A stretch of DNA of 64,000 nt from a virus. Position numbers and translations under genes: made by a program. This document shows positions 1 to 40,856 of the stretch, in pieces. The stretch lies in IMG/VR virus record IMGVR_UViG_3300031760_000017; one strand, written 5' to 3'. The notes beneath the pieces were generated by a model that made no database searches, was not told the DNA's origin, and saw nothing but the letters and a program-made list of their open reading frames with translations. Position 1 is the stretch's first letter; the number at the start of each line of letters is the position of its first letter.

Positions 1-252
1 GAGAAAAAAAGAATTGCTAATTCAAAAGTTAGGTCAACTCTGAAAAAATTAGACCATAATTTTTCTTCACATGGTGCATATAAAAAAATGTATGGACAAT
101 GGGAGATTTGTGATTGGTATTTCTTAGAATCTTGGAAAGAATATTGGGAATGTGAGAAAAGAGCATATAAAAGATTTCCTGAAGTTTATAAAAAACCTTT
201 AAATAAAAAAGAAGCTTATAGAGCTTGGTATAAAGACTATAAAATGAAATAA
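1..252 (+). CDS. hypothetical protein, C-terminal fragment (gene starts upstream of window)
   Basis: Frame 1 is open from base 1 to TAA at 250-252 (...AYRAWYKDYKMK*). No motif recognised. Confidence 0.4.
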   Translation, partial: EKKRIANSKVRSTLKKLDHNFSSHGAYKKMYGQWEICDWYFLESWKEYWECEKRAYKRFPEVYKKPLNKKEAYRAWYKDYKMK

Positions 253-262
253 AATATATATA

Positions 263-388
263 AAGGCATATACAGCAAATTCTCTTTAAGAGATGTGTTG
301 GTTCAAATCCAACATTTGCCGCATGGGCAGATTGGCGCAATGGTTGACGCAAGTGACTCGTAATCACTCTATCTTATTAATATGCCTT
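263..388 (+). ncRNA. circularly permuted tRNA-like RNA (T-arm and 3' acceptor strand lie upstream of 5' acceptor strand, D-arm and anticodon-like arm); Y-RNA/YrlA-like mimic or permuted tRNA-Thr(CGU)
   Basis: Terminal stem AAGGCATAT (263-271) / ATATGCCTT (380-388). T-arm GTTGG-TTCAAAT-CCAAC (297-313). ATTTGCC (314-320) pairs with GGCAGAT (326-332). Then come U8, a D-arm GCGC/AATGGTTGA/CGC containing GG, and an arm AGTGA-CTCGTAA-TCACT (352-368). Hand-folded. Confidence 0.5.
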
Positions 389-395
389 GTTTTAA

Positions 396-467
396 TGGGG
401 TGTCGCCAAGCGGTAAGGCATAGCACTTTGACTGCTACACACGTTGGTTCGATCCCAACCACCCCAG
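396..467 (+). tRNA. tRNA-Gln (anticodon UUG)
   Basis: Acceptor TGGGGTG/CACCCCA. D-arm GCCA-AGCGGTA-AGGC. Anticodon arm TAGCA-CTTTGAC-TGCTA. T-arm GTTGG-TTCGATC-CCAAC. 72 nt, hand-folded. Confidence 0.85.
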
Positions 468-489
468 CTAAAATTGAATGTAGTATAAT

Positions 490-945
490 GTGAATATAGA
501 CGGCGTGTGCGTGCCTAAGCTCTAAAATCGTCGTGAGGAGCCCTCATGGTAACTGCTTCTATAGCTGAAGGTGCCTACTACATCTATTACAATAAGGTCT
601 AGTCAGCCTGTACACAATGGTGAAATGATATATCCGTGTACCGTACTAAAACGTATTAGGTATTGTAATGGCGTTATGGTTCTACCAATACGTTAAATTG
701 GGGAAATGCAAATGGAACTATTTATTATTAGTTGATTCGTTTAACTTAATAAAATCAATCTTTTTTAAGCAATAGTGCATTATTGCTAATGAACGAATCG
801 TGTATAAAAAAGATTGGATTTTAGAACGATTATATGTTGATTGTTTATTAGAAGATGAGGTGCGGAAGCGGGGGCAACGCAGTACCCATAAATGAATGTC
901 TCGGCGTTGAGTAGTCAACTATTAAACAATAAATGTAGAAATCGT
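490..945 (+). ncRNA. long structured non-coding region of unknown class (ribozyme/intron-like or other large ncRNA)
   Basis: No plausible ORF with or without TAG=Gln. G+C is visibly higher than the flanks. Helices include GTACAC (610-615) / GTGTAC (636-641), AACGTATTaGGTA (650-662) / TACCAATACGTT (683-694), GATTCGTT/AACGAATC and AGCAATA/TATTGCT. A crossing pair AAAATCAATCTTTTTT / AAAAAAGATTgGATTTT gives pseudoknot topology. Confidence 0.3.
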
Positions 946-1049: not shown

Positions 1050-1156
1050 TGTGCGGTGGTGGAATAAGTAGACACAGACTATATGAAAAGCGAGGTAGCA
1101 TCTGACTCACACAAATTCTCGCGGAGTCATGTGAGGTGTAAATCCTCACCCGCACA
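1050..1156 (+). ncRNA. 107-nt tRNA-like RNA: acceptor, class-II-like D-arm and T-arm, with a 54-nt insert in place of a normal anticodon arm
   Basis: Acceptor TGTGCGG/CCGCACA (7 bp) and U8. D-arm GTG-GAATAAGTAGA-CAC resembles tRNA-Leu. T-arm GTGAGG-TGTAAAT-CCTCAC has a non-canonical loop. In the insert, GCGAG/CTCGC and GACTC/GAGTC interleave, which predicts a pseudoknot. Confidence 0.35.
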
Positions 1157-1490: not shown

Positions 1491-3014
1491 ATGAATACTT
1501 TTCTTAATCAGATGGTAAGAGACAATAACATTACTCGTACAGAGAACGGTGGTGTAACTCGCAAGACAACAGAATCTAAGGTGCTTGATATGTTTGCGGT
1601 TGGCGGTGCTTATAGAAACCGTTCTGATGCAGATGTTATTCTTCTATTTAAGAACGCATTTGAGGAAAACCGTGAACTTGCTATGAAGTGTCTTTTCTAT
1701 CTTCGTGATGTTCGTGGTGGACAGGGTGAAAGACGTTTCTTCAGAACAGCTTTCCGCTGGCTTTGCGATAAGCATCCAGAAGTAGCAAAGAGAAATCTTA
1801 ATAATGTAAGTGAGTATGGTCGATGGGATGATCTTATTTATGTAGCTGAAGACACTAAGTGCCAGACTGCCGCATTTAATATCATTAAGCATCAGCTTGC
1901 TCTTGATGTTCAGTGCAAGACTCCATCTCTGCTTGCTAAGTGGCTGCCTTCTCAGAATGCTTCTAATAAAGATACTAAGCGTCTTGGTCATGTGCTTGCA
2001 AATTATCTTCATATGACAAACAAGGAATATCGTAAGACTCTTTCAGTACTGCGTGAGCGCATCAACGTTCTTGAACGCCTGATGAGTGCAAACCGTTGGG
2101 ATGAAATCGAGTTTGATAAGATTCCTTCAAGAGCTGGTATTATTTATCGTAATGCATTTGCTCGTCGCGACATTCTTGCCAAGAGATATGAAGCATTTGC
2201 TAAGAGTTCAGAAACCAAGGTAAATGCAGAAGCTCTGTACCCGCATGATATTGCACATAGAGCTTTTGATTATGGAATGAAGCGAGCTGACATTAATGCT
2301 CCTGAGCGTCTCATGCTTCAGAAGTATTGGGATAACCTTAAGGATTTCTATAATGGAAGAGAAGAGAATGGCATTGCGGTAGTTGATGTTTCTGGTTCTA
2401 TGAGTGGTATTCCTATGGAAGCCGCAGTTTCTATGGGAGCCTATATCGCAGATAAGGCTCACGGACCATTTGCTAATCACTTTATTACTTTCTCAGCTAA
2501 CCCTGAGCTAGTAAGATTTGAAGGTGTTGACATTGTTGATAAGTTCAATCGTTGTGTAAAGGCAAATTGGGGTATGAATACTAACGTTGCGGCGGTATTT
2601 GATATGCTTCTAAATACAGCTAAGAAGAAGCATGTAAAGGTTGAAGATATGCCTACTCGAATTTATATCTTCTCAGATATGGAATTTGATAAGTGCATGA
2701 CTCTTGATCCTAATTACCATGATGAATGGGGTTGGGGTTGGCATTCATGCAAGCATCCTTCTTCAACTAAGGAAGTAAATTCTGACCTTGAGAAGATCAA
2801 GAGAAAGTGGAGTGCTGCTGGTTATCAGATGCCTTCTGTAATCTTCTGGAATCTCAACGCTAGAAATAATCGTATTCCTGCTATCGGCGATGGTTTCAGT
2901 TATGTGAGTGGATTCTCTCCTTCCATGATTGATTCTATCCTTAGCGGTAAGGACGGTTATGACCTCATGCTTGATAAGCTCATGTCTAAGCGTTATGCGG
3001 CGGTTGTTGCATAA
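1491..3014 (+). CDS. Ro60-like protein: helical DUF2828/TROVE-like N-terminal region plus C-terminal vWA domain
   Basis: ATG at 1491 follows AAAGGAG; the track's 1464 start is an upstream TTG. N-terminal TENGGV...LDMFAVGGAYR. vWA MIDAS motif VVDVSGSM (DxSxS). FSDMEFD and C-terminal GFSPSMIDSIL parallel Ro60/Rsr features as I recall them. TAG-free and G+C-richer than neighbours. Confidence 0.55.
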   Translation: MNTFLNQMVRDNNITRTENGGVTRKTTESKVLDMFAVGGAYRNRSDADVILLFKNAFEENRELAMKCLFYLRDVRGGQGERRFFRTAFRWLCDKHPEVAKRNLNNVSEYGRWDDLIYVAEDTKCQTAAFNIIKHQLALDVQCKTPSLLAKWLPSQNASNKDTKRLGHVLANYLHMTNKEYRKTLSVLRERINVLERLMSANRWDEIEFDKIPSRAGIIYRNAFARRDILAKRYEAFAKSSETKVNAEALYPHDIAHRAFDYGMKRADINAPERLMLQKYWDNLKDFYNGREENGIAVVDVSGSMSGIPMEAAVSMGAYIADKAHGPFANHFITFSANPELVRFEGVDIVDKFNRCVKANWGMNTNVAAVFDMLLNTAKKKHVKVEDMPTRIYIFSDMEFDKCMTLDPNYHDEWGWGWHSCKHPSSTKEVNSDLEKIKRKWSAAGYQMPSVIFWNLNARNNRIPAIGDGFSYVSGFSPSMIDSILSGKDGYDLMLDKLMSKRYAAVVA

Positions 3015-3026
3015 CTTCTATATATA

Positions 3027-3059
3027 AGGCACGCAGAAATGCGTGCCTTTCTTTTTTTT
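3027..3059 (+). terminator. intrinsic terminator
   Basis: Hairpin AAGGCACGC-agaaat-GCGTGCCTT followed by a T-run. Confidence 0.75.
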
Positions 3060-13603: not shown

Positions 13604-16600
13604 TCAATCTATATAACCAACCCATCCTCTATACGGACTACCATATGAATGTCCATCATACCATCTTCCAAGAGCATAACCCCATTCAAAATAAAGAATC
13701 CGAGGAGAACTTGAATCATTTGGATCTGCATGCTCGATCCATATATCTGTAACAATCTGTCCCCAAGAAACTTTTTGATTATCATAAGTAAAATAATCAG
13801 CTTCTAATTCTTCAGTTGAAAGATAATCTGATCTAATTTGTGAAGCAGTCAAATAATCTGATCTAATTTGTGAAGCAGTTAGATAATTTGCATTAAGAGT
13901 TTGAGTAGAAACATAATTTGCTTTAACTTGATTAAATTCTGCTTTATCAGCATATAATGTATCACATTTTATAATCATCTTATCAGTCAAACTTCCAGAA
14001 TAATAACTGTTGGTCATATCACTAGCCATAACAGTATTAGGATCTAACCAAGAGTCACCTGAGCCTCCTATAGTAAAACCATATCCATTTAAGGACTGTC
14101 CACTCATAACCTATCCATAAATTTTCCCAAAATAAGCATCTCCATTTGCGCTAATAGACCAAGAAGGACCAGATATACTACCCTCATAATCAAGAGAAAG
14201 ATTACCAGCTTTTAAATCATAAGTATTAATATTCCATCCGCCTATCTGTCCGGAGCTTGCATTTATCTCGCCTGATAAATTTACATTAGATGCTGTTAGA
14301 TTACCATTATTATCAACAGAAAATCTAGAACCAAGAGCAATTTCATCAGTTCCAATATAAACGCTTCTATTATTTCCTTTTGTTCCAAAAGAAATTGAAC
14401 TTAAATTAGCTGTAAAATCTCCTTTAATAGTCCAATGATTTCCAGATAAATACCCCATTTCTAAAGTCGCAGGTTTTATTGTTCCATTATCTGAATATCT
14501 ATTAGTAAATCTAAAAGAATTTCCTAAAGATAAGCCAAGAGGAGATAAATGAAAACCATCAGCTGTATTAGTTAATTCTGTTTTATTTCCACTATAAATA
14601 CGACTACGATCAGCTTCTAAAGTAATTTTTTGACTATTTAAAGAATTACTTTCAGTACCAATTAATTTAGTACCATTTATAGTCCAACCGCCAATTTGAC
14701 CAGATGTTGCGGTAATTTTCCCACTTAAATCTGTATTAGTAGCAACTAAATTTCCATTAGAATCTACTTTAAAACGTCCTGAACCATATCTTATTTCAGG
14801 TTTTGTTAAATCAATTAATAAACCTTGACCTTTTTCATTACTAGATGTATAATTAGATGGTAAGCCATTTTCATTATAATTTTTCCAAAAATTACCACTA
14901 TATAATAAAGCATGACTAGTACTTGGATCTATTACAATTTGCCCATTGTTAGCTTTTCCAAATAACGCAGAACCATTTTCACTATTTAAAAAGAAAGTTC
15001 TATCACCTTTATTATATCCTAATAATCCAATGTCAGGAGCAGTCTTATCTGGATTTTTAACTTCACCCATTAAAACTCCAGTAAAACTATTATCATTTTC
15101 TTTTTTACCTGCGCCCATTTGCGGAGCTAAGATATAACCACCCTTATCATCTAATTGAATACTGTTGCCATCCCAAGCGTTAATATGAGCTAATCCATAT
15201 TTATTTAATAAGAAATGAATAGGAATATGAATTCTAGCAATAACCTAATTATTATTAACACTTTTAACAGTACATACTAAAGCATTATTAACACACTAGC
15301 CGCTATACCTTGAAGCTGGTCGACATATGCATTGATTCTTTTGTAAATTTTTAGTATAATAACTCTAAGTTAATAACTCTAAATCATGAGAATCGTTATT
15401 ATAAGGAAACTAATCATACTAACCTACTTCAATCTAATGTGTCTGTATTATATTTATAACATCACCATTAACTGAATAACTAAAATTAACTGCATGACTT
15501 CCAGAAACTAATGATATATCTTCCCATTTATTATTTATTTTTTCTTTAATAATAAATTCAAAAGGTTTAGAATTGTCATATTGAGGAGATAAACCATCAG
15601 AACTATACATGACATATCTAAATCCAGTATAATCTTTTAATTCAATTCTATAATTATCATTTTTAACCCATGCAGTTGCAATAGGCAATGTACTATAATA
15701 TGAGTGCTGATTATAAGTTATTGTGCATTTTAGAATATCTGCTAATGTTTGCGTAAAAGTAGTGTCTATTGGATGTGCTGTTGTATTCACATATGAAATA
15801 AGTCCAGTATTAGCATTTACAATATTAAAAGAACTTTCATCAGTAAAATTTGTTTTATAAAAATTCTTTAACATGTTCCAAGTTACAGAACTAGGACTAG
15901 TTACACCATCTTTTGGATTTGCGGCAGTTGAAGTTCCTTCCCAAATCAAATCTCCACTTTGCCATAGCTGAGCTTTAAATAAGGTTTTTCCAACATTAAA
16001 TCCTGCAGTTTGCTACTATCCAGTTCCGCTTGCCGCAAAATTAATAATATAAGAATTAGAATCTCCTATTGCTGTTAAAGTAGGGTAAATAGGTAATATT
16101 TTTGCTGTACTATTTGGAACAATTTTCACAATATATTGGGTCCCATTTGTACCAGGTTCTCCCTATTTTACAAAAGTAAAGTTAGTTTTTGCAACTAAAT
16201 TAATCTACTTATAAGTTACAAATAATTCAATCTGATTATTTAATTTTTTTACATCATATTTTTGTGCAATATCATAAACTAAAGTATCTAAATTTGAATA
16301 ATATCTATAACCTTCCTATTCAACTGCCCATGTTTTATTGTTTTTGTCAACTAATAAAGTATTTTCAATAGGAATTTTCCAAGTAACTTGTCTTTTCTTT
16401 ATATCATCAGTAATATCATTCCCTAAATTATCATATACCTTAAAAGTTAAAGCTAAAATCTATTGCGGATCATCTAAACTTTTACTATTAGGCGCAATAC
16501 CATTCTAATTATATTTATATGATGCAGAGCCATTTTCAATAATTAGTGAATATATATTTTCCGCCTATAAAGAATTACTTAAAGTAATTGAAGCTGTTCC

Positions 16601-18295
16601 TATATAATTATGATTTAAATCTTCTACCGTACATTTAAATATAGCAAATCCATCTATTGCATTAACTTGTAAATCATAAATTTTATTTTTACTTACTCTT
16701 TGTGTATATTTAAAATTAGAAAGAGTAGTTTCATAATTATTTAGTTCTTGTTGTGCTTCATTTTTAAATCTAGTTCCAGCTTGAATACTATTTTTTAATG
16801 ACTGCAAAGCATTATAAGTAGTTGTATAGTTATTATTTAATTCAGTCGTTGTTTCTAAAGCTTCTAATCCACAGTTATTATTTTGCCAAGCCCAATAGTA
16901 ATTATAATTTTGTATATTTTCAACTCCATTTACTTTACAAGTTAATGTTGGATGTCCAATATCATAATAAAATTGAGTGCCACTATCTGACTATATTATA
17001 ATATCTGCCGCATTAGCTTGTAAATTTTGAATTGTGATTTCCTTAGAAATAACTGTATTATCATATAAAACCGCAACTTTTAATTTATTTTCTCTTGCAG
17101 TTGCATCTTCTCGATAAACTATATAAGTACTATCTCCAGGCACCCATTCTATTTGAGGAGCTTGAGTTGCAGTTCCAGGTGAAATAATATTTTTTTCATT
17201 TACACATTTCCAACCGCGTCCTAAATGTTGATTATAATACTAACTATTTGCAAAAATACCAACATTTTCTTTTCCCCAATAGAAAGATAAATTTTGAGAA
17301 TCTGATACTAATTTTCCTTTTATTCTTACCTGTGCGGTAACTATTAATTCTTCTTTTGGAGAAGGATTTGTAGCTTGTTTAAAGAAAATACCTTTTGGAG
17401 TATAAAATGAAATAGATATTCCATTATTTTCTTCATCGCTTTTTCTTATAGCACCTAAAATTTCAACAGAAGAAATAAAGATATTTACTCCATTATCTGT
17501 TGATCTTAAAGGATAATGCTAAGGTGTCCCGGATGCTGAATTAGGAAAATCCTAGCAAAAGATTTCAATAGAATCAATTCTAACAAAGTTTTCTCCATCT
17601 ATTTCAAAAATCTAATATTGTCTAGTATTATGTTCAAATCTATAAGGATTACCTGTCATATTATCTTCATCAAGCGTATAGCTTTTAATTATCTATTTAG
17701 AATTTCCATTAGATTCTAAATTAGAATTATCATTAAATACTAAATTAAAAGTTATACCATAATGACCTTGATATTGTTCCTATAATGGAATAGTATTTCT
17801 TATAGTCATTCCTGCAATTAAAGAAGATGCTTTTTTAATATATTGATTTAAAGCATCATTATCTAATTTTAGCGGTGATGAGCTAACTCCATATTTATAA
17901 ATAACATAACTATATTTCTTATATTTTGTAGCTAAATAATAAATGCCGCTTGTTGTAACGCAATTCTTACCTAATATATCATATGCCTACTATCCAACCG
18001 CTTCAGAAACATAGTTAATTCCAAGTTTCTAAGTTGTACCAAGAATAGTTTTATCTTTGCTCATATCATTTCCTGGAACTAAAATATAAACATATGCACC
18101 TTTAGAATAAGTAATATCTGCCGAACCCGCATACGCAAAAAAAGTTGTATCTTGATAACGACATTTATATTTTCCTATTGTCGCATCTTCACAAGAAATA
18201 ATTTGAGCTTGAATAGTTTTATCATATCCAGCTTTTTTTATTGAATTATTAGTTAATAATTCAATCGCGTCTAAAATTTTCTAATTAACGCCCAT
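13604..18295 (-). CDS. giant tail hub/fibre protein, 1563 aa with TAG=Gln
   Basis: Track ORFs at 16807, 15949, 15118 and 14107 all share the frame of ATG 18295. Hand translation of 15118-15434 and other stretches shows only TAG interruptions. The N-terminus is OB-fold-like (GAYVYILVPGNDMSKDKTILG). The C-terminus has repeated SGQIGGW(T/N)IN motifs. Confidence 0.65.
13823..13890 (-). repeat. 30-nt tandem repeat (about 2.3 copies) inside the giant tail gene
   Basis: ATAATCTGATCTAATTTGTGAAGCAGT(C/T)A(A/G) occurs twice plus a partial copy. It encodes YLTASQIRSD repeats. Confidence 0.8.
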
Positions 18296-18611: not shown

Positions 18612-21600
18612 TTATTTTCTTCTCATAGCACGTTGAGCCGCTAAATTAACTAAATCATTTAAAGCTTCTTCAATCTATTGTTTACTATTTACAGCAGGGA
18701 AAGATGCTGAAATCTGAACTTTTTGATCAATAACATCACTAAGAGTTGAAGCTGAATTTAAAGAAAATCTATCAGTAGAGATTTTCCCAATTTTATTTAA
18801 TAAAGATGTTCCTATATTTTTTGTAATAGATCTTAAAATAGAAACACTATTTAAAATATTTCTAGTATCTTCTGAATTTAAAACTAATTCTTTTTCATCC
18901 AATATTGCTAAACGACCTTGTTTTGAATTCCAACTTCCTGTATATCCACCTGTATCATATCTTTTTATTTTTCTATTATAAAGTCCAACAGGATCATTTA
19001 TATTCATATGAAGAACGTCATGATTATCTAAATGTCTAAGATCTCCAACTCTATTGCTATTATAATCATAGACTCCATTATCAGCTCCTCTTCCCCATCT
19101 ATAATGATTTTCTGAGCCATTAGGATAATATGTTTCAGATTCAGGCTCTTCATAAGAAACAGTATCTTGCATTCTGTTTAAAGCATCTTGATAGCGGTCA
19201 GCAGCAGACTACATTCTACTAGCATTAGCTTCTGCATTACTTGCTAAAGCATCTAAAGCCGCTTGAGCTTCATTACTATAATCCCAATCAGCATCCGCCA
19301 TTCGAATCCTCATATCTTCATAAGTCTGCGCAGTTGCCTAAGCTGATGCGGCAGCCTATTGCTAAGCTTGAACGAAATCATATAATTGAGTAACTGCATT
19401 TGCCGCAGCTGTATAAACAGAATCATAATCATAAACAAGAGCTTGAGCAGCATCTCTTAAATCTTGAATAGCAGATAATTCATCAGCCATTCTATTGATT
19501 AAATCATCATTAACTTCAATTAATCCAGTAAATTCATCTATTAAATTATCTACTCCATTTTGAACATCATTTAAATCTATACCAGCAGTATTAGCTAAAC
19601 TATCAAGTTCTTGCTAATAATTAAAAGTAGCCTCATGAATCTCTTCAAAAGCTTCTTGACAAGATGGTATAAAACCGCCCTATCCCGCAACTTTATCAGA
19701 CATCTATTGAATACCGCTATTCCATGCTGGAACTAAATCGCCCATTAGAATACCTTTTTCATCATCTGTCATCTTTTGATAATTTGCAACATCTATGTTA
19801 TAAATTGCGGCAATCTCATTAAAAGCAGATTCAGTTAGATTTTTTCTAATATCAGAATTTTGTTGAGCTTTATTATTAATATATTCTCCATATTGCTCTT
19901 TTAATAAAGCTAGCTATCTAACTCTTTCTTCTTCTGTTAAAGAAGTATCAGTAACTATATCTTTATATTTCTATTGGAAATCTCTCCAAGCAGAAAGCAT
20001 TTCCTATAAATTATTTTGATAACGCTATTTATCAAAATTATATAATTCATTTTGAGCACTAATTAATCCTTGTTCAGCATCAAAAATACCATTTTGATCA
20101 GCAACATATTGATAAGAATAGTTACCTTGTGAATCACGTTTTAATCTTAAAGAAGTTTTACTTGCTCTTATATCTTCTAAAGCAATTCGTGCTTGTTCAA
20201 TTTGAAGCATCTTCTACGCTCTATCTACATCATATTGAGTAATCTTCTATTTATTCTTTAAATTATCTAATTGCTCATCCATAACTTTCTTTAAAGCTTG
20301 TTGATGTTTCAATTGATTTGGATTATTTAATGATTTTTGGAACTTATTTTGTAAATCCTGAAGAGCAAAAGCAGCATTAATTGTATCTAAGTATTCATCC
20401 GCATTTTTATTCATTAAATCCCATTCATCACTTAAATAATCAGTACCTTTTCCGTCTGTAATTTTCTTATCTAGCTAATCAAAAATTTTATCAATAGCAT
20501 TACTGTATTTTTCACTGATTGTTTTTGCGGAAGTTTCTATTAAAGAATTGATTTCCTTAATAGCGTTTTTATAATTTTCTTCAAATTGTTTTGCCGCATT
20601 AGTATCTCCCGCTAATAAAGCTTGCTACCATTCTTGTTTCCAAAAAGCAATCTATTTTCTTAAAGCATCTATTTGATTATTTTGATTTTTTTCTAATTCA
20701 GCATAATAATTTTCCATAGCTTCATAATTTTCATCACCATAAAGCAATTTTAATAAATCCATATCATGCTAAATTAAATCATTAATAAAATCATAATCAT
20801 CTTGTTGTTTCTCAAATTGTTTAGAAATATCATCAATAGTATCTAAATAAGCTTTATCAATATCCGCAATTAAATCTTCAATATCCTACATTTGTTTCAT
20901 TAATTCGGATAAATCACTTTTTAAATCCGCCATAGCTTGTGCTTTATTATTACCATAAATTGCGGAAGTTCCTTTTTTATCTATATCTTCTATTTCTTTA
21001 CGAGTATTTAATAATTGCTATGTTAATTTTTGAACAGTACCTATTGAACCATTTATATTAAAGAAAGAATCTAAATCCATAACATTTTTAGTAGCATCTT
21101 TAAAAATCTTATCGAAATCAGTATCTTTCATAAAATCAGTTTTATTAATTACATTTCTTACAAACTAATTCCAATCTTTTGCAGCTTCGCCCATCTATAA
21201 TCGAATTTCAAGCTACATTCTAAATTTTTTAATATTAATTTCAATCTACTTTTGGGCAATCTATTCAATCTAATCTACTATATCTTCCATGCTATTTCTT
21301 AAAGAATCATAATCTTTAATTTTAGCTTGAGTATTTTTTAAATCTTCTTGAGCAGATTGCACAGCTTTATCATAAGCTGAAATTTGTTTATCTAATCCTT
21401 CTTTATAAGTTTTATCAGTAGAAGCATTATAAGATTCAATTAAACTATTCTATTCATTTATTAATCTATTAACCGCATCTTGTTTAGCTTGTAATATAGA
21501 CATATAATCATTTATATTTCCATATTCATCAAAAGTAACTCCTAATGAATTTAGAATTTGCTGTTGATTAGCTAAATCTTGTCTTTGAAGCTATTGCTTT

Positions 21601-24600
21601 TCTTTTAATTTTCTTTTTTGAGCTTCTAATATTGCGGTTTGTTTATTTAAATTATCAAGTAATTGTTTACCATATAATTTATCTTGAATTTTTTGAGTTC
21701 GCTCTAAATCACGATTAATTTTCTTTATTTCAATGTCAATATCGTGATATAAATCTTTCTCTTGCTCTATTGGCTTTTTAGTATTTTTAGTAGAAGTATT
21801 AGTATTATCTTTTGCAGTTTTATCTGCTGCTTTTTGAGCTTTTTCAGCCTCAGCTTTTCTCCTTGCTTGACCCTTTGCTCCAGCGCCATTAGCAGATTTT
21901 TTATATTTAAAACCACCACCAGAAGTTTTATGTGCGGAAACAACTTTTAAAGCAAATGCAGTATGCTATTTAGTTTCCGTATCATCCGCAGGAACTGTTT
22001 TATAACGAATAGTAGGCACTCTATATGTTACCTAACTTCCATCTATGGGGTTTACACCAGTAACTTCTCTATTTGTAACTTCAGCTTCTGCGCCAGTGTA
22101 CTGAACTGTATCTTGCGCAGTTGTTTTTTGCTAGATGATTTCAGCATCTACACCCATAGAAGCTAAATAATCTGTTGCTTGTTTTGCTGTCATATTGGCA
22201 GCATTTACCATATTACTTAATTCTTTTAAGAATCCTTCATTATCCAATGAAGCTCCGATTTTTAAATCCTATAAATTTTTACCCTAATAATATAATTCCA
22301 TTATATCATCAAAGTCTTTCTTAAAAGCTTCTGTATCTAAATGAATTTGGGTAGCAATATCTTGTCCAGCTAATTGCATTAATTGATCATAAGCTTCTAC
22401 ATTACCATCAATTGCCGCCTTCATTAATTTTAAATTCTCAACATTTGTTAAGAAATTATTAGATAATGACTAACCATCTAAATCAAGTAAATCAGCATAA
22501 GCATCTCTTAATCCAGAAATTGCCTATGATTGTTCTTGCCAAGAGCCACTTTGTAAAGCTCCTAGCCAAGTATCATAATTATCAACAACATCTTGAATAG
22601 CATTATCAAATCTTAAAATTGATTCAGCAAGTTCTTCCGCACCTTCACGATCCTATTTTAAAACTTTTGATAATTCTTCACTTTGCTATGATAAACTTTG
22701 AATATCTTTAGTAAGATTTGCATAAGCTGTCTCATCAACATCCGAATCTGTTGGAAACATAGCATCATGTAACTGATGAGCAAGTTTTTCTTCTTCCTAT
22801 TTTAACTAAGCAGTCCTATCACTTAAATCTTTAGTTTGATCACCTACTTTAGCAACAGCATCATAAATCTACTTTACTATACCTGGAAACTCCTAAAGCC
22901 ATTCTTTTGATTTTTGTTGCTTTTCAATAATAGCTGTCCATTCATTTATAATAGGCTAAGTGGCTCCATCTGTATCTTTTAAATATTCAATTTGTTTCTT
23001 TAATAAATCAAAATCAGCATGATTATTTTGAAGAGCTCTATTATCTAATTCATCATAATCATACTGTTTCTAAGATAATAATTGAACTCTATTTAATTCA
23101 GATTCAATCTAGAATAAAGTATTTTTAAATCCTTCTAATTTTAAATTATTAATAAGTGTATAGAACTATTCTGCATCTTCAGTCATTTTATATGACCCAT
23201 TAGCCATCATAGTAAAGAAAGATTGAATCTAAGGAGCTAAATCTCCAAATTCAGTTTTTGAAACGCTCTTTCCACTTCTAACTTGATCTTCAAGAGACTG
23301 ATAAAAAGCATAATTCTCTGCAGCGTCTCCCTGCATAGCAGAAATTTCTTTTATATTAGAAAAATCTGCATGTGAGATATTATCAACAACATTACCTAAA
23401 GTATCCCAGTTAGAAAATATTGATGGAGAAAGTTCAAAAGCTTTAAATAATTCCTCTAAATGTTGTTCATCTAATTCAGATAAATTTTTAATTATTTTAT
23501 CCGGAATTATTCCTGATGCTTTTTCTTGAATTTTATCAATAATTTTACCAATTTCATTATATTGATTATAAAGTTGAGACTATTCAGTAAGAAGATATGA
23601 ATCAGCTAATTCTTTTGCAGTTGTATCTCCTACAAATTCACCCTGCTATTCTAAAGCTGCTTGTAATTTTTGTCTTTGTTGTAAAAATTCTCCAGCATTT
23701 GTTACATTAGAAAAATCAAGGACGCCATGAGCTTCTTTTGATAATCCTATAAAAGCTGCTTGATTTTCATTAACATCTTTCGAAGCGTTGTCAAAAGCTT
23801 CCATCTATTCTGCTGAATCTGCAACCCATTGTGTTAAATCTTTATACCATTGAGATTGTCTCTATTGTTCGCTTAAAGTTTTGCTTAAATCTTCAACAGC
23901 TTTTTTAACTCTAGGATACATTATTAACAAGGACTATAAATTATAATCAACTTTATATTCAATAGTTCCATTATCTTGTTGGCGAAAACCATTTTCACTT
24001 AATATCTCTTTAGCTTCATCGCTCATTCTATTGCTACCAAAAGATAAAGCATAATCAATTTGATTGTCTTCACCAAGTGAACCTTTTACACCACGTTTTC
24101 CTTGAAGTTCAAAAGAGCTCCATAGGTTTTGTTTTGCTGCTTCATACTATTCTTTACTGGAATTATATTTTTTCTAAGCTTCTTCAGCTTTTAATTCTTT
24201 TAAAGTTTGAATTAAATTATCATAATTATTACGTAATCTATCTGCCGCATCGCCTTCAAGACCATATTGATTAATTAAATCTTCTATTCCTGATTTTAAA
24301 TCAGATCTTGTAATCTAGCCTTCTTTATATTTTTGATTTAGCTCTTCAATAGATTTATATAATTCTTGATTTCTACTTAATTGTTCTTGAAGTGTATTTG
24401 CTTCCTAAATAACTGATTCATTATGTTCAATTTGTGCTTTTCTAGCCTATTTACTTTTATTTATTAAAAAACCGAGTGCTGTTACAGCAGCTAATGCAGC
24501 TGTAATAAAAGCTCCTAATGGAGTAATTGTAATAACACTATTAAGAAATTGAATTTGAAAACCTGCTTCTGTTGCAGCAGCACCTATAGCACCAAATGAA

Positions 24601-27263
24601 ACGGCCTTAGCTCCATTAGAAGTAATAACAGCTGCCGCTTCTGCTGTACTCTTTCTAAATTGATAATTTAAAAGATTAGTTGCTTTTCCAACAGCCCCAA
24701 TTCCTTTAATTAACATTGGTAATGAAAAAGATAAATTTGTAACAATTTGAAGTATTCTTTGTCCAGTAGATAAATCCTGATTTTTCCAAACACTTCCTAA
24801 ATGTTGAATTTGTTGAATAGAAGACCCAATTCGAGCAAGACCTGCAGCAGCTTTTGCATATTCCTCAATTCTAACAGCTCTGTCTTTATTTGACATCTCC
24901 CCATTAAAATCGTTTTGTTTTGCATTCATTTGACCGCGCAATTTCTACAATTCAGGAACAATTTTTGGATCATTATAAACCTATTTAAAAATTTTTTCTA
25001 TTTTTGTTTTAATTTCATTACCACTAGTTTCTGTTATTTCTGCTAATTTATCAAAAAAATCTTTAAATTTTTGAAAAGTTTCTTCATTTACACTTTTAGA
25101 AAATCTTTTAGGTAAATCTTCATATAATTGACCAATCTCTTCAATAGCTTTTTGAGTTTCTTTAGAAAACTATTGATTACTAGTCATTTCATCAAAAACT
25201 TCTTTAAGATCTTTTGCTCCTAATCGTAAAGTAGTAAAAAAACTTCTTATGCCATCTTGCCCTACTTTATCAAATATATTTAAAAACTTTTCAGTTGATT
25301 GAGAAACAGACTCAGTTGATTCTTGAAATTCATCATATTCTTGCTAACATTTTTCTAGCATATTTAATATTTCATCAATTTTTTCAGGCTTTCCAACAAT
25401 ATTTTCTAATTTTGTCGTACCTAACTCTTGTCCTGAAATTCTATCTATTAACTATTCTAAAGGTTGTTTTTGTTTAACTAAAGTTTGAATCTAATTTCCA
25501 ATATTAGTAATATCATTTAATAATTTTTGTGCTCCTTGAAATTCTTCTGGAGACATCATTCTTGATAGTTCTAATAAATGTTCTCTATCTTTTAATAAGC
25601 TTTTACTTACTTCATCTAATTCAGGAATTCCTTGCCAATCTTTTGTTGCTTGTAAGGCATTATCAAATTCTCTAGCATTACTATTTGCAATCTCAAGGTT
25701 AGTAATAGTTGTATTTATTCCTTTAGCAATTTGTTCACTAAAAACAGCAACCCCAATAGCTCCAAGAGATTGTAATAATGCCTTACCTCCGCCTAAGCCA
25801 TCAATAAAGTTTGCAACAAAAACTGCAACACCCGATAATGCATCAGTTATACTCTTTATAGAATCAACATCAATTAAACTATCATATACATCTTCAACGG
25901 AAGCTTTTAATTGCTTTAAATGCGCGGCAGTTGAATCCATATATATATCTTGTTGCTTTTGTAAGGTACCTGCTGCATTTTGCGCTGTATTTAATGCTTC
26001 ATTATATTCTTCAAAATTATCAAATAAAGCAAGTAAATTATTATATTGTCTTTGACCAGCCATTGTTTGAGCTAAATAAATTTGCTGTTCACGAGTTAAA
26101 TCATCCCAACGACCGCCAATTTCTTCCATAACTTCGCCCATATCACGAAGATTTCCATTCATGTCAAGAACATTAAAACCAAGTTGTGCCATTTGACTAG
26201 AATATCTACCAAGAGTAACTCCATCTTCATCAATTCCAGCTTTAATATCACTAATACGAGCATAAACAGTTCTTAAAGCTGTACCAACACTCTAAGGAGC
26301 TTGTCTTGTTGCAGAAATAATAGTTGATAACTGTGCAGCTAATTGCTATTCACTAACACCCATTGTGGCGGCCGTACTTGCAACTTTACCCATACCTTTA
26401 CTTAATTCTTCAAGATCTGATGCGGTTGTTGCAGCAACAGCAGCTAATCTATCAATATATATCTAAGCCTAATCCGCATTAACCTTATAACCATTCCAAA
26501 CGGCAGTTAACTGTTCAGAAACGTCTGCTGTTGATTGATTTGTAACATTTGCTGTTTTTAATGTAATTGCGGTTCTAGCCTAAATTTCTTTATCTGATAA
26601 ACCCTGTTGAGCATAAATTAAAGCAGCATTAGTGTAATCTACTGTTGTAGTGCCTAGTTGTTTGGCTGCATTATTGGCTTGCTCTGCAAATCTTCCCATT
26701 TCATCAGCAGTCTTACTAGTAACGATTCTAATATCATTTAATGAAGTATCTAATGATTTAACATATCCAACTGCTTGTTGAATAGTACTAGTGAAACCAC
26801 GAAATACAGTATTAGCTAAATTATATTTTGCAACATTAACAAAAGTCTAAGCAAATTTATCAAGCACTTGATGAGTTTGCTTTAATTCTGCATTAACACT
26901 TAATACATGAGACGATAAATTTCTAAAAGCATTCTCACCAACAGCACCGCTCTTAGAAAAACTTTGATAGACTTTTTCTATTGAAGTTCCAGATTCATTT
27001 AATGACTTATTAAAACTTTCAACATTTGTAGTATTTAATTTTGCATTAAAAGCAGCTCTTAATGCTTTCTATACATTTCCAGCCTATTTCTGAATTGCTA
27101 TTAAATCGGTTTTAGCTGTATCAAAATCAGAATTATTTATTTTCATCATATCTTTTATAGTTAAATTTTGAATCTCTTTTAAAGATTTTTTTAACTAATT
27201 TAAACTCTGTTTTTGAATGTCAAAACCAATAGAATAGATAATATCTCCACCCTTTTTTGCCAT
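18612..27263 (-). CDS. tail tape measure protein (TP901-family N-terminal domain), about 2883 aa with TAG=Gln
   Basis: ATG 27263 follows AAAAGGAG. Track ORFs starting at 26192, 24941, 20210 and 19172 are all in its frame. The N-terminal region matches the TMP pattern (…GMGKVASTAATMGVS…LGFNVLDMNGNLR…). TM segments lie at about 24450-24700. The C-terminus is typical (DTGGYTG…LAILDEKELVLN). Spot checks found no in-frame TAA/TGA. Confidence 0.7.
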
Positions 27264-40058: not shown

Positions 40059-40856
40059 ATGAAATATATATTAAAAAATGGTTAGTAGATAGAGTCCATT
40101 GATATTGGAAAGGCTAATATCAAAATAGGGCAAAGAAATAATCGACTTACTATTTGTGATAGAGCGCCTAATACAAAATCAAAAAAAGCACGTATAATTT
40201 GTTTATGTGATTGTGGACAATACACAGTTATAAATCATCAAGATTTTAAAAATGGACAAGTTAAAAGTTGTGGATGCTATGCAAAAGAAATACATGCTGA
40301 AATAGGAAGAAAAACTGCTATAGATTTCACTCAATCATAGTACAATAATAATCCATTTTATGAATATATTGAACCTACAGATGTTAGATTTAATTGGAGT
40401 AAACAAGTAGTATGGAAGGTTAAATGTAGAAAATGTAATAAAGAATATTTAGCAATTCCTAAAGAATTAATTTCTATAAATAATAATAAGCGTATGAATC
40501 CTTGTAATTGTTGGAAAACTTATAGTATTGGAGTTCAACGTATTATTGCAATATTAGAAAAAAATAATATTTCTTATGAATTAGAAAAAAAATTTGATAC
40601 ATGTATTTCACCAAAAGGAAATTGTTTACCTTTTGATTTCTATCTTCCTGATTATAAGATTTTAATAGAATATGATGGACAACAACATTTTAATATAGCA
40701 TTTGGTCAAAATGAAAATAAATTGATTCAACAAAAAAAATATGATAAAATAAAAAATGAATGGTGTAAAAATAATAATATTCATTTAATTAGGATACCTT
40801 ATTATCAAAAAGAAATTACAATTTAGAATTTAATAGGAGAAAAAATTAATGGGTAA
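40059..40856 (+). CDS. PD-(D/E)XK-type endonuclease (free-standing homing-endonuclease-like), 265 aa with TAG=Gln
   Basis: The N-terminal Cys-rich region is followed by FDFYLPDYKILIEYDGQQH...NIHLIRIPY. TAG TAG at codons 9-10. The frame continues through TAG 40824-40826 to TAA 40854-40856, overlapping the gyrB start. Confidence 0.55.

Follow-up and report, generated by a model that had tools for sequence, protein, structure and literature searches.

What kind of RNA is specified by a stretch of phage DNA in which the two halves of a tRNA cloverleaf stand in inverted order, within a tRNA array and 1.1 kb upstream of a gene for a Ro60-like protein? We addressed this question for positions 262–390 of a 64,000-nucleotide viral DNA (IMG/VR record IMGVR_UViG_3300031760_000017), referred to below as the window; L numbers denote the loci and contigs fetched for comparison. 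A first-pass annotation of the window had proposed a circularly permuted tRNA-like RNA with the topology of the bacterial Y RNA YrlA. Our analysis makes it quite likely that 262–390 encodes a functional Y-type RNA and that its partner is a DUF2828/DUF7788 protein whose gene follows 1.1 kb downstream. Together the two would form a sister system to Ro60/YrlA, with a recognition motif of its own, a modular scaffold, a wide distribution and one clade, that of the window, which carries a complete permuted tRNA with a fast-changing anticodon.

A circularly permuted tRNA cloverleaf within a terminal stem

The element lies on the plus strand and has the form of a Y-RNA-type frame around a permuted tRNA-like domain. 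Its ends are joined by an uninterrupted helix of 9 perfect pairs, the terminal or "frame" stem, between AAGGCATAT at 263–271 and ATATGCCTT at 380–388, the latter followed by the spacer GTTTTAA and, from position 396, by tRNA-Gln. The 5′ strand of this stem leads into the single-stranded motif ACAGCAAAT (272–280), a putative protein-binding site whose ACAGCAA core (272–278) is invariant in the family described below, and then into the 5-bp V hairpin TCTCT-TTA-AGAGA (281–293), which occupies the position of a variable arm and appears in both the minimum free energy (MFE) and the centroid folds. There follow a T-arm, GTTGG-TTCAAAT-CCAAC (297–313; stem 297–301/309–313, loop 302–308), and a closed acceptor helix (314–332), in which ATTTGCC (314–320) and GGCAGAT (326–332) form 7 pairs, one of them G-U, across a 5-nt loop made of G321 and the CATG linker (322–325). 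The second acceptor strand continues into T333 (U8), G334 (G9) and a D-arm, GCGC-AATGGTTG-ACGC (335–350), with GG in its loop, the segment as a whole spanning 333–350, and A351 then leads to an anticodon-type arm, AGTGA-CTCGTAA-TCACT (352–368), that is specific to the clade of the window. Direct reading of the sequence found no T-arm on the 3′ side of the anticodon-type arm. The first-pass annotation had recognized this absence and had placed the terminal stem, T-arm, acceptor strands, CATG linker, D-arm and anticodon-type arm exactly to the base; the hairpin at 281–293, the ACAGCAA at 272–278 and a second frame RNA at 1239–1316 were not listed in it.

RNAfold recovered the same multi-helix fold at −36.1 kcal/mol (z = −3.2), a stability equaled by 2 of 200 shuffled sequences. 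In its native order the element gave no ARAGORN tRNA call at 262–390, nor did any of 59 family members in theirs. After rotation in silico at the acceptor loop and removal of the frame, that is, of the terminal stem and the motif, ARAGORN reported a tRNA-Thr(cgt) with a long variable arm, the outcome of the permutation-aware check that had been recommended for this locus. Because a tRNA is called only once the sequence is rotated, the element at 262–390 is a true circular permutation of a tRNA cloverleaf. The RNA has two modules, a frame, consisting of the ~9-bp end-to-end stem and the single-stranded ACAGCAA on its 5′ side, and an insert. Other identities were considered and rejected: an intrinsic terminator or promoter, as neither kind of site lies in 1–1400; a transfer-messenger RNA (tmRNA), as neither the ARAGORN tmRNA mode nor the Rfam tmRNA families found anything in the window; and a coding function, the overlapping open reading frames (ORFs) at 29–367 (minus strand) and 293–493 (plus strand) being judged mechanical.

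Compensatory changes maintain the fold across a family of relatives

A single-sequence nhmmer search found only two convincing relatives, both near-identical, and structure-aware scans were needed to uncover the family. In 80 viral loci, fetched through similarity to the DUF2828 protein, these scans revealed further units of T-arm, closed acceptor and D-arm whose acceptor strands had different sequences and were still mutually complementary; the unit was always enclosed by the frame (A)AAGRCnnnn-ACAGCAA ... nnnnGYCTTG. The first T-arm/acceptor/D-arm regular expression (regex) also caught true adjacent tRNAs, for example in L031 at 3002, which were removed by means of ARAGORN calls, and an interpretation of the L011–L020 units with 11-nt ACCA loops as tandem tRNAs was discarded because the covariance model places these units inside frames. 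A scan of viral contigs with the pattern TAAAGACNNNNACAGCAA returned mostly chance matches (a closing stem was present in 17 of 126) and served solely as a source of extra members, the stretches fetched in it being too short to judge protein linkage. A regex anchored on CAGCAA located 130 distinct frames that share the strand of the gene for the protein.

Covariance model R1, built from 21 frame-enclosed sequences, produced 106 matches in the window and the 80 protein-anchored viral loci, every one of them on the strand of the protein gene. In the window it matched only 262–390 (94.8 bits) and 1239–1316 (35.9 bits). Model R2, which was built from 38 relatives with the window's own clade excluded and was run over the 64-kb window with filters off, scored 262–390 at 67.9 bits (E=3.2e-11), and its only further match below E=0.2 was again 1239–1316 (35.8 bits, E=5.7e-5).

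Next to these searches, 61 full-length members (59 distinct; alignment A4) were aligned to the model. This alignment is fitted to the model, and the R2 search and the Levitt-pair test described below are independent checks on it. Among the 59 distinct relatives, 93.3% of the cells expected to be paired were paired, compared with 63.7% in shuffles; compensatory (two-sided) changes were present at 23 of the 24 modelled pairs, and the covariation score was 0.784, whereas shuffles gave 0.208 and sliding the partners gave no more than 0.16. Thus the same arrangement recurs in relatives with covariation, as the first-pass annotation had asked one to look for. Compensatory changes occurred at all 9 pairs of the frame stem and at 4 of the 5 pairs of the T-arm helix (99.3% of cells paired), covariation extended over all 7 pairs of the closed acceptor helix, each with 5–6 pair types, and the D-stem pairs covaried as well. 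Pairing of the V hairpin was kept in relatives with other sequences, such as CATAG/CTATG, TCTAC/GTAGA and TTCTTC/GAAGAA.

Several positions that a tRNA holds constant were constant here too: U8 in 61 of 61 sequences, A14 in 60 of 61, the T-arm signature GTTC.A..C and the GG of the D-loop throughout the family. The motif positions C12, A13, G14, C15, A16 and A17 were likewise invariant (alignment A3). The Levitt pair 15:48, both columns of which are unpaired in the model, was C:G in 27 members, U:A in 27 and A:U in 1, with 2 unpaired (of 59), and scored 0.981 compared with 0.477 in shuffles; in the window it corresponds to A340 (A15) and T296 (U48). This compensation argues for an L-shaped tRNA-like fold, as judged from the aligned sequences.

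The covariation bears directly on a simpler account, in which the 3′ half of one tRNA gene was fused by deletion to the 5′ half of the next, leaving a functionless remnant. The Rfam tRNA model does give two sub-threshold half-matches, at 274–321 (20.7 bits) and 326–387 (25.6 bits), and tandem tRNAs can be mistaken for YrlA in searches (Chen et al. 2014, PMC4201824). Against a remnant stand the acceptor strands, which pair and covary at 7/7 positions in the 59 relatives, and the constant enclosure of the unit by the stem and ACAGCAA, also in genomes without a tRNA array. Two ordinary, complete adjacent tRNAs at this position, which the first-pass annotation had named as the sign of a remnant, were looked for in the relatives and found in none. 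We regard the remnant account as effectively refuted, with a negligible chance of being correct.

Frames adjoin DUF2828 genes on the same strand with or without tRNAs

The candidate protein partner is encoded on the plus strand at 1491–3014, so that the RNA lies on the same strand and 1.1 kb upstream. The 507-aa product has a helical repeat domain first and then a vWA domain whose MIDAS motif reads DxSGS, which is the order of domains and the overall fold of Ro60. Pfam matches were obtained to DUF2828, DUF7788 and, weakly, VWA_2, the DUF7788 part being a vWA-type domain with invariant DxSGS. The Ro60-type fold was detected only by fold comparison, with the Ro60 structure of phage phiLo (9l5y) among the top structural matches. 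The first-pass description of a Ro60-like gene 1.1 kb downstream therefore held for the fold and failed for the family, which is DUF2828+DUF7788 and not TROVE. The gene is bracketed by a promoter-like site at 1398–1426 and a strong terminator at 3026–3049. Homologs of the protein were found by tblastn in 698 of ~50,700 cultured phage records, and also in bacteria and archaea; all five proteins tested by Pfam scan, from three cultured phages and two bacterial loci, had the DUF2828+DUF7788 composition. Papers on plants and tardigrades cite the Pfam family DUF2828 as well.

Since frames, tRNA arrays and the DUF2828 gene lie close together in these phages, the tRNA arrays confound the association of frames with the gene. 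The confounding was resolved by scanning a single genome for each prokaryotic species. At 9-kb genome loci that contained no tRNA, frames were located directly beside the DUF2828 gene and on its strand, upstream in Thermoactinomyces (L234), Tumebacillus (L264) and Enterococcus (L236, L244 and L267, two tandem copies each), and downstream in Mycolicibacterium (L250, L255) and Nodosilinea (L248). A Pacearchaeota metagenome-assembled genome (L256) also carried a frame beside the DUF2828 gene, in a locus with tRNAs. Prokaryotic copies with the T/closed-acceptor/D module were present in L250 (6724–6840), L255 (5587–5720) and L246 (5451–5566). By strand, regex frames numbered 81 plus versus 7 minus in the viral loci and 58 plus versus 7 minus in the genome loci. 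Taken together, these data show a strand-specific, tRNA-independent linkage of the frames to the gene for a Ro60-fold protein.

In the five cultured phages examined, the R1 matches fell into gaps without annotation, either flanking the gene or inside the tRNA array next to it. The five are Mycobacterium phage Wamburgrxpress (L273, 4027–4151, near 40256–40380 of MH744425, 58.5 bits), the Felixounavirus Escherichia phage Andreotti (L274, 5306–5433, near 69826–69953 of MN850610, 62.6 bits), Bacillus phage Thrax3 (L276), with two full copies at 75–196 and 462–582 and three frame-only copies, Staphylococcus phage 6ec (L277, 4025–4235), with three tandem frame-only copies, and Listeria phage LMSP-25, where the match was weak. 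The cultured-phage genes beside these RNAs are labelled vWFA protein, Ro-like RNA binding protein, DUF2828 family protein or RNA binding protein.

The linkage also helps to judge whether the frame might be an element that serves the processing or stability of transcripts from the tRNA array, for example as a spacer structure or a site for RNase III/E, with no relation to DUF2828 and close to its gene only as a by-product. Phage frames do abut tRNAs at distances of 3–10 nt, some hold tRNA-like sequences in ordinary order (L008, L049, L051, L070), and some are found without a DUF2828 gene in the DNA fetched. Such an element would not be expected to adjoin DUF2828 genes on the same strand at the eight tRNA-free 9-kb loci listed above, nor to have both of its copies in a 64-kb window within 1.3 kb of the DUF2828 gene, and we give this explanation only a slight chance.

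The frame is constant and the insert modular

What varies across the family is the modular insert, while the frame stays constant. Many copies enclose short hairpins only, some enclose a T-arm alone, and many carry the module of V hairpin, T-arm, closed acceptor (AS) and D-arm. The copy at 1239–1316 of the window (plus strand) belongs to the first kind: it has the stem AGACATAT/ATATGTCT and the ACAGCAAAT motif, contains no tRNA-like domain and in this resembles YrlB. It is situated between tRNA-Arg and tRNA-Cys and is kept in L001 (3748–3826) and L034 (3749–3826). Other frames enclose an unpermuted tRNA-like sequence recognized by ARAGORN, namely Stop(tta) in L008 (543–641), Tyr(gta) in L049 (2301–2415), Phe(gaa) in L051 (1961–2078) and L055 (2373–2490) and Lys(ttt) in L070 (3130–3240), and homologous inserts of this sort differ in anticodon (gta in L049 versus gaa in L051 and L055). 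Some full members have an anticodon-type hairpin ahead of the variable loop and T-arm, so that the break falls between the D-arm and the anticodon arm.

The window belongs to a clade of eight members (the window, L001, L034, L147, L190, L228, L222 and the second copy in L109) with an anticodon-type arm after the D-arm and a variable-arm-like hairpin before the T-arm. The anticodon-type stem covaries in this clade, and the loop always reads CT-NNN-AA, so that C32, U33, A37 and A38 are kept. The triplet itself differed in every member: CGT, TCT, TAT, GAT, TAA, GAA, GTT and TGA. Even near-identical copies with the same acceptor and discriminator had different triplets (CGT in the window, TAT in L034, TCT in L001), and of the 3 substitutions that separate the window from L034 over 129 nt, 2 fall inside the triplet. 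After rotation, ARAGORN called six of the eight members as class-II-like tRNAs (Thr-cgt in the window, Ile-tat in L034, Ile-gat in L147, Leu-taa in L190, Phe-gaa in L228 and Ser-tga in L109) and made no call for L001 and L222. Most members of the wider family have no anticodon arm.

The loop of the closed acceptor started with N-CCA (GCCA or ACCA) right after the 7-nt 3′ strand in 23 of the 59 distinct members, the equivalent position of the window reading G-CAT-G. A discriminator and CCA encoded directly after the acceptor 3′ strand place the CCA within the hairpin loop, a pattern that would be expected if the loop were opened to give a tRNA-like 3′ end, and one in keeping with the RNase P cleavage and CCA tailing of Mycobacterium smegmatis YrlA described below.

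These features raise the possibility of a genuine permuted tRNA gene, whose RNA would become a chargeable decoding tRNA once RNase P had cut the acceptor loop and CCA had been added, whether or not the frame ends were ligated. In the permuted tRNA genes of Cyanidioschyzon merolae and some archaea, a splicing endonuclease cuts the bulge-helix-bulge into which the termini fold, and a circular intermediate gives rise to decoding tRNAs of fixed identity. The window RNA shares with them the 3′ half upstream of the 5′ half, the short linker that joins the acceptor ends and the cloverleaf obtained by un-permutation. A decoding role is favored by the presence of all four arms in the window clade, by the ARAGORN calls for 6/8 un-permuted members, by the conserved C32, U33, A37 and A38, the 7-bp acceptor and the discriminator base, by the N-CCA encoded in 23/59 relatives, and by triplets that match A/T-rich codons and would suit a phage of 30% GC. 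The window RNA differs from the known genes in its plain 9-bp terminal helix, its conserved protein-type motif and its variable anticodon, and neither the sequence nor the fold revealed a bulge-helix-bulge at its termini. The change of triplet among the window, L001 and L034 is hard to square with a fixed amino-acid identity, most of the family has no arm with which to decode, and neither the ACAGCAA, invariant as it is, nor the association with a Ro60-like protein would have a role. Membership in the red-algal and archaeal type, which the first-pass annotation had offered as an alternative, is for these reasons not supported, and a decoding tRNA is very unlikely in our estimation.

The same variability could refine the Y-type reading, if the tRNA-like module were a decoy or sensor for host defenses that target tRNAs, such as anticodon nucleases, and the triplet were under diversifying selection. 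Eight triplets in eight members within an otherwise fixed CT-NNN-AA loop, the concentration of window–L034 substitutions in the triplet, the parallel gta/gaa difference among the unpermuted inserts, the RNA ligase, kinase and phosphoesterase cassette of this phage (33779–36667) and an RtcB-type ligase 1.3 kb from the DUF2828 gene of a Listeria phage all agree with such a role. This support is circumstantial throughout. Relaxed constraint or gene conversion by neighboring tRNA genes would explain the triplets equally well, the anticodon-type arm is absent in most members and the cassette lies 30 kb away, and we therefore rate the refinement as possible at best and rather improbable.

The family resembles YrlA and differs from it in motif and probable partner

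YrlA comprises a V hairpin, T-arm, closed acceptor and D-arm, with its ends paired elsewhere, and shows a compensatory G15:C48/A15:U48 Levitt pair (Chen et al. 2014, PMC4201824). The first-pass assignment of the window RNA to this topology is supported, the order of elements being kept, with strong covariation, in the 59 relatives. The two RNAs have in common the paired ends, a single-stranded motif on the 5′ side, stem-loops V, T, AS and D in this order, the tRNA invariants U8, A14, GG and T-loop, Levitt 15:48 compensation, a less-conserved V stem-loop, a location on the same strand as and within 4 kb of the gene for a protein of Ro60-type fold (for YrlA a TROVE ortholog, here a protein with no TROVE match), and the occurrence of several Y-type RNAs per locus (YrlA and YrlB). 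The 7-bp acceptor corresponds to that of Mycobacterium smegmatis YrlA, which is cleaved by RNase P and CCA-tailed in vivo (PMC4201824). ACAGCAA holds the position of the GNCGAA motif in YrlA. Unlike YrlA, the window RNA has DUF2828+DUF7788 in place of TROVE as its likely partner, is embedded in a phage tRNA array and, within its clade, carries a full anticodon-type arm where the Rfam consensus (RF02553) has a short helix closing the T/AS/D junction.

Phage Y-like RNAs beside Ro60 genes are already known from mycobacteriophages, CcrColossus, Bacillus phage G and Thermus phage phiLo (PMC12135203). The phiLo RNAs Yrl1 and Yrl2 are situated, like the window RNA, just upstream of a phage Ro60-fold gene; they differ in having been identified by a CGAA motif and a stem-bulge-stem, with no tRNA-like domain mentioned, and in their protein, a TROVE Ro60 (PMC12135203). 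The two-piece tmRNA is likewise a non-coding RNA of bacteria or phages whose tRNA-like domain is permuted, and the window RNA differs from it in being without tag reading frame or pseudoknots. Searches of the literature for DUF2828, Ro-like phage proteins and Y RNA-like phage RNAs found neither the present RNA family nor a pairing of DUF2828 with RNA described, and a few members, for instance from mycobacteriophages, may be among the 22 phages of Chen et al. 2014.

Several observations weigh against a Y-type RNA bound by the DUF2828 protein. The motif is ACAGCAA with no CGAA, whereas that of YrlA, which canonical Ro60 recognizes, is GNCGAAN0-1G. The Rfam YrlA model, which the first-pass annotation had suggested as a check, gave no match to the window RNA at the gathering threshold, nor at E<=10 over 1.5 kb or 191 nt, and the relatives reached 28.3–39.8 bits, below the YrlA gathering score of 69, aligning through the T/AS/D part only. 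Pfam TROVE did not match the 507-aa protein, and searches of PDB sequences with the single sequence or a 35-sequence profile returned no Ro60 and no sequence match at all. The AF2 model of the protein was moderate (pLDDT 75.6, pTM 0.50, from a shallow alignment), and its TM-scores to Ro60 were low (0.32–0.42). Closed frames in the pattern-anchored contigs L153, L157 and L158 were found with no DUF2828 gene within the 3–10 kb fetched; the gene of such contigs may lie elsewhere on the contig. We infer the existence, ends and stability of the RNA from its sequence, and its binding by the protein we infer likewise. A different fold is also conceivable. In the window clade, and not in the other clades, the frame stem (GGCATAT/ATATGCC) has nearly the same sequence as the acceptor stem (GGCAGAT/ATTTGCC), so that cross-pairing into two side-by-side truncated tRNA-like units is possible, and the 25.6- and 20.7-bit half-matches to the tRNA model fit two such units.

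Genomic setting of the RNA

Four ordinary tRNAs were identified downstream of 262–390 by ARAGORN and Rfam. The first, tRNA-Gln(ttg), is encoded on the plus strand at 396–468 and starts 7 nt past the RNA. In relatives, tRNA-Gln follows the frame RNA by 7–10 nt in L002, L004 and L044 and follows frame-only copies in L010 and L025. The RNA had been placed at the head of the tRNA array; the 98%-identical L001 has 10 more tRNA genes upstream, and the window simply starts inside the array.

The description of the phage as recoded proved right for its late genes, with 71 in-frame TAGs in 18612–27263 and 26 in 13604–18295 (minus strand), concentrated in large structural genes. In-frame TAGs were absent from replication and RNA-metabolism genes, the DUF2828 gene included, and amber recoding is limited to part of the genome. 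The related phage L031 encodes a tRNA with a CTA anticodon (757–832).

The cassette at 33779–36667 (plus strand) comprises three genes, for an RNA ligase (PF09414 with a PHA02142 OB domain), a P-loop kinase (AAA_33) and a metallophosphoesterase, and has the composition of a system for healing and sealing tRNA or RNA ends. Ro60 and Y RNA are known to associate with RNA repair operons, and the repair genes of the window, together with the RtcB-type ligase of the Listeria phage, provide a circumstantial fit to this association.

Three further elements of the array region were noted. Between tRNA-Gln and tRNA-Gly, 480 nt (469–948) contain no convincing ORF and no Rfam match and have an MFE of −114 kcal/mol; this gap measures ~490 nt in L001 and only ~80 nt in the close relative L034, which suggests insertion or deletion of an uncharacterised element. 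A 105-nt tRNA-like element at 1051–1155 (plus strand), for which ARAGORN made no call even with intron search, has an acceptor-like helix (GTGCGG.../...CCCGCAC), a T-arm-like TGAGG-TGTAAAT-CCTCA at 1132–1148 and a long internal insert. A candidate 54-aa ORF at 88–252 (plus strand), rich in W, Y and K and with no Pfam match, ends 10 nt before the RNA.

Discussion

If 262–390 is a Y-type RNA, it would be co-transcribed with the tRNA array, in line with the lack of terminator-like sites in 1–1400, and its ends would be freed by the enzymes responsible for trimming the tRNAs on either side, RNase P cleavage at the 5′ end of tRNA-Gln, 7 nt further on, setting the 3′ end. The Ro60-like protein would bind the frame of stem and ACAGCAA, much as Ro60 binds the stem of Y RNA. 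The tRNA-like module would then be the effector end, offering a tRNA shape to enzymes or partners that recognize tRNAs, in analogy to YrlA, a substrate for modification by TruB and DusA. In addition, RNase P may open the closed acceptor loop and expose a 3′ end for CCA tailing, for which M. smegmatis YrlA is the precedent; the product would be a tRNA-like molecule in two pieces that the frame stem keeps joined. The setting in which all this would take place, quality control or repair of tRNA or other RNA during infection, is the weakest step of the proposal.

A bolder version can be formulated for the window clade. Its RNA would be a complete permuted tRNA, opened by RNase P, CCA-tailed and two-piece, with the frame bound by protein, and the changing triplet would make it a programmable decoy, sensor or chargeable substrate directed against tRNA-targeting defenses, while the frame would be a modular scaffold that mounts interchangeable RNA "heads" on DUF2828 Ro-like proteins in phages, bacteria and archaea. 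We consider this full scheme unlikely.

The Y-type reading itself, which we favor, has consequences that reach beyond this phage. It would provide a candidate RNA partner, and hence a testable function, for the large, function-unknown DUF2828/DUF7788 family, and would add to the partnership of Ro60 and Y RNAs a sister family of proteins for which the motif of RNA recognition is a different one. In that family, YrlA's tRNA-mimic design would recur in permuted, unpermuted and partial forms on one scaffold. Homologous RNAs are present, unannotated, in tractable phages, among them the Felixounavirus Andreotti of E. coli K-12, a Bronvirus of M. smegmatis, Staphylococcus phage 6ec and Bacillus and Listeria phages, so that biochemistry and genetics are feasible at once, and with a covariance model of the family, the annotation of phage tRNA arrays would capture RNAs that it now overlooks.

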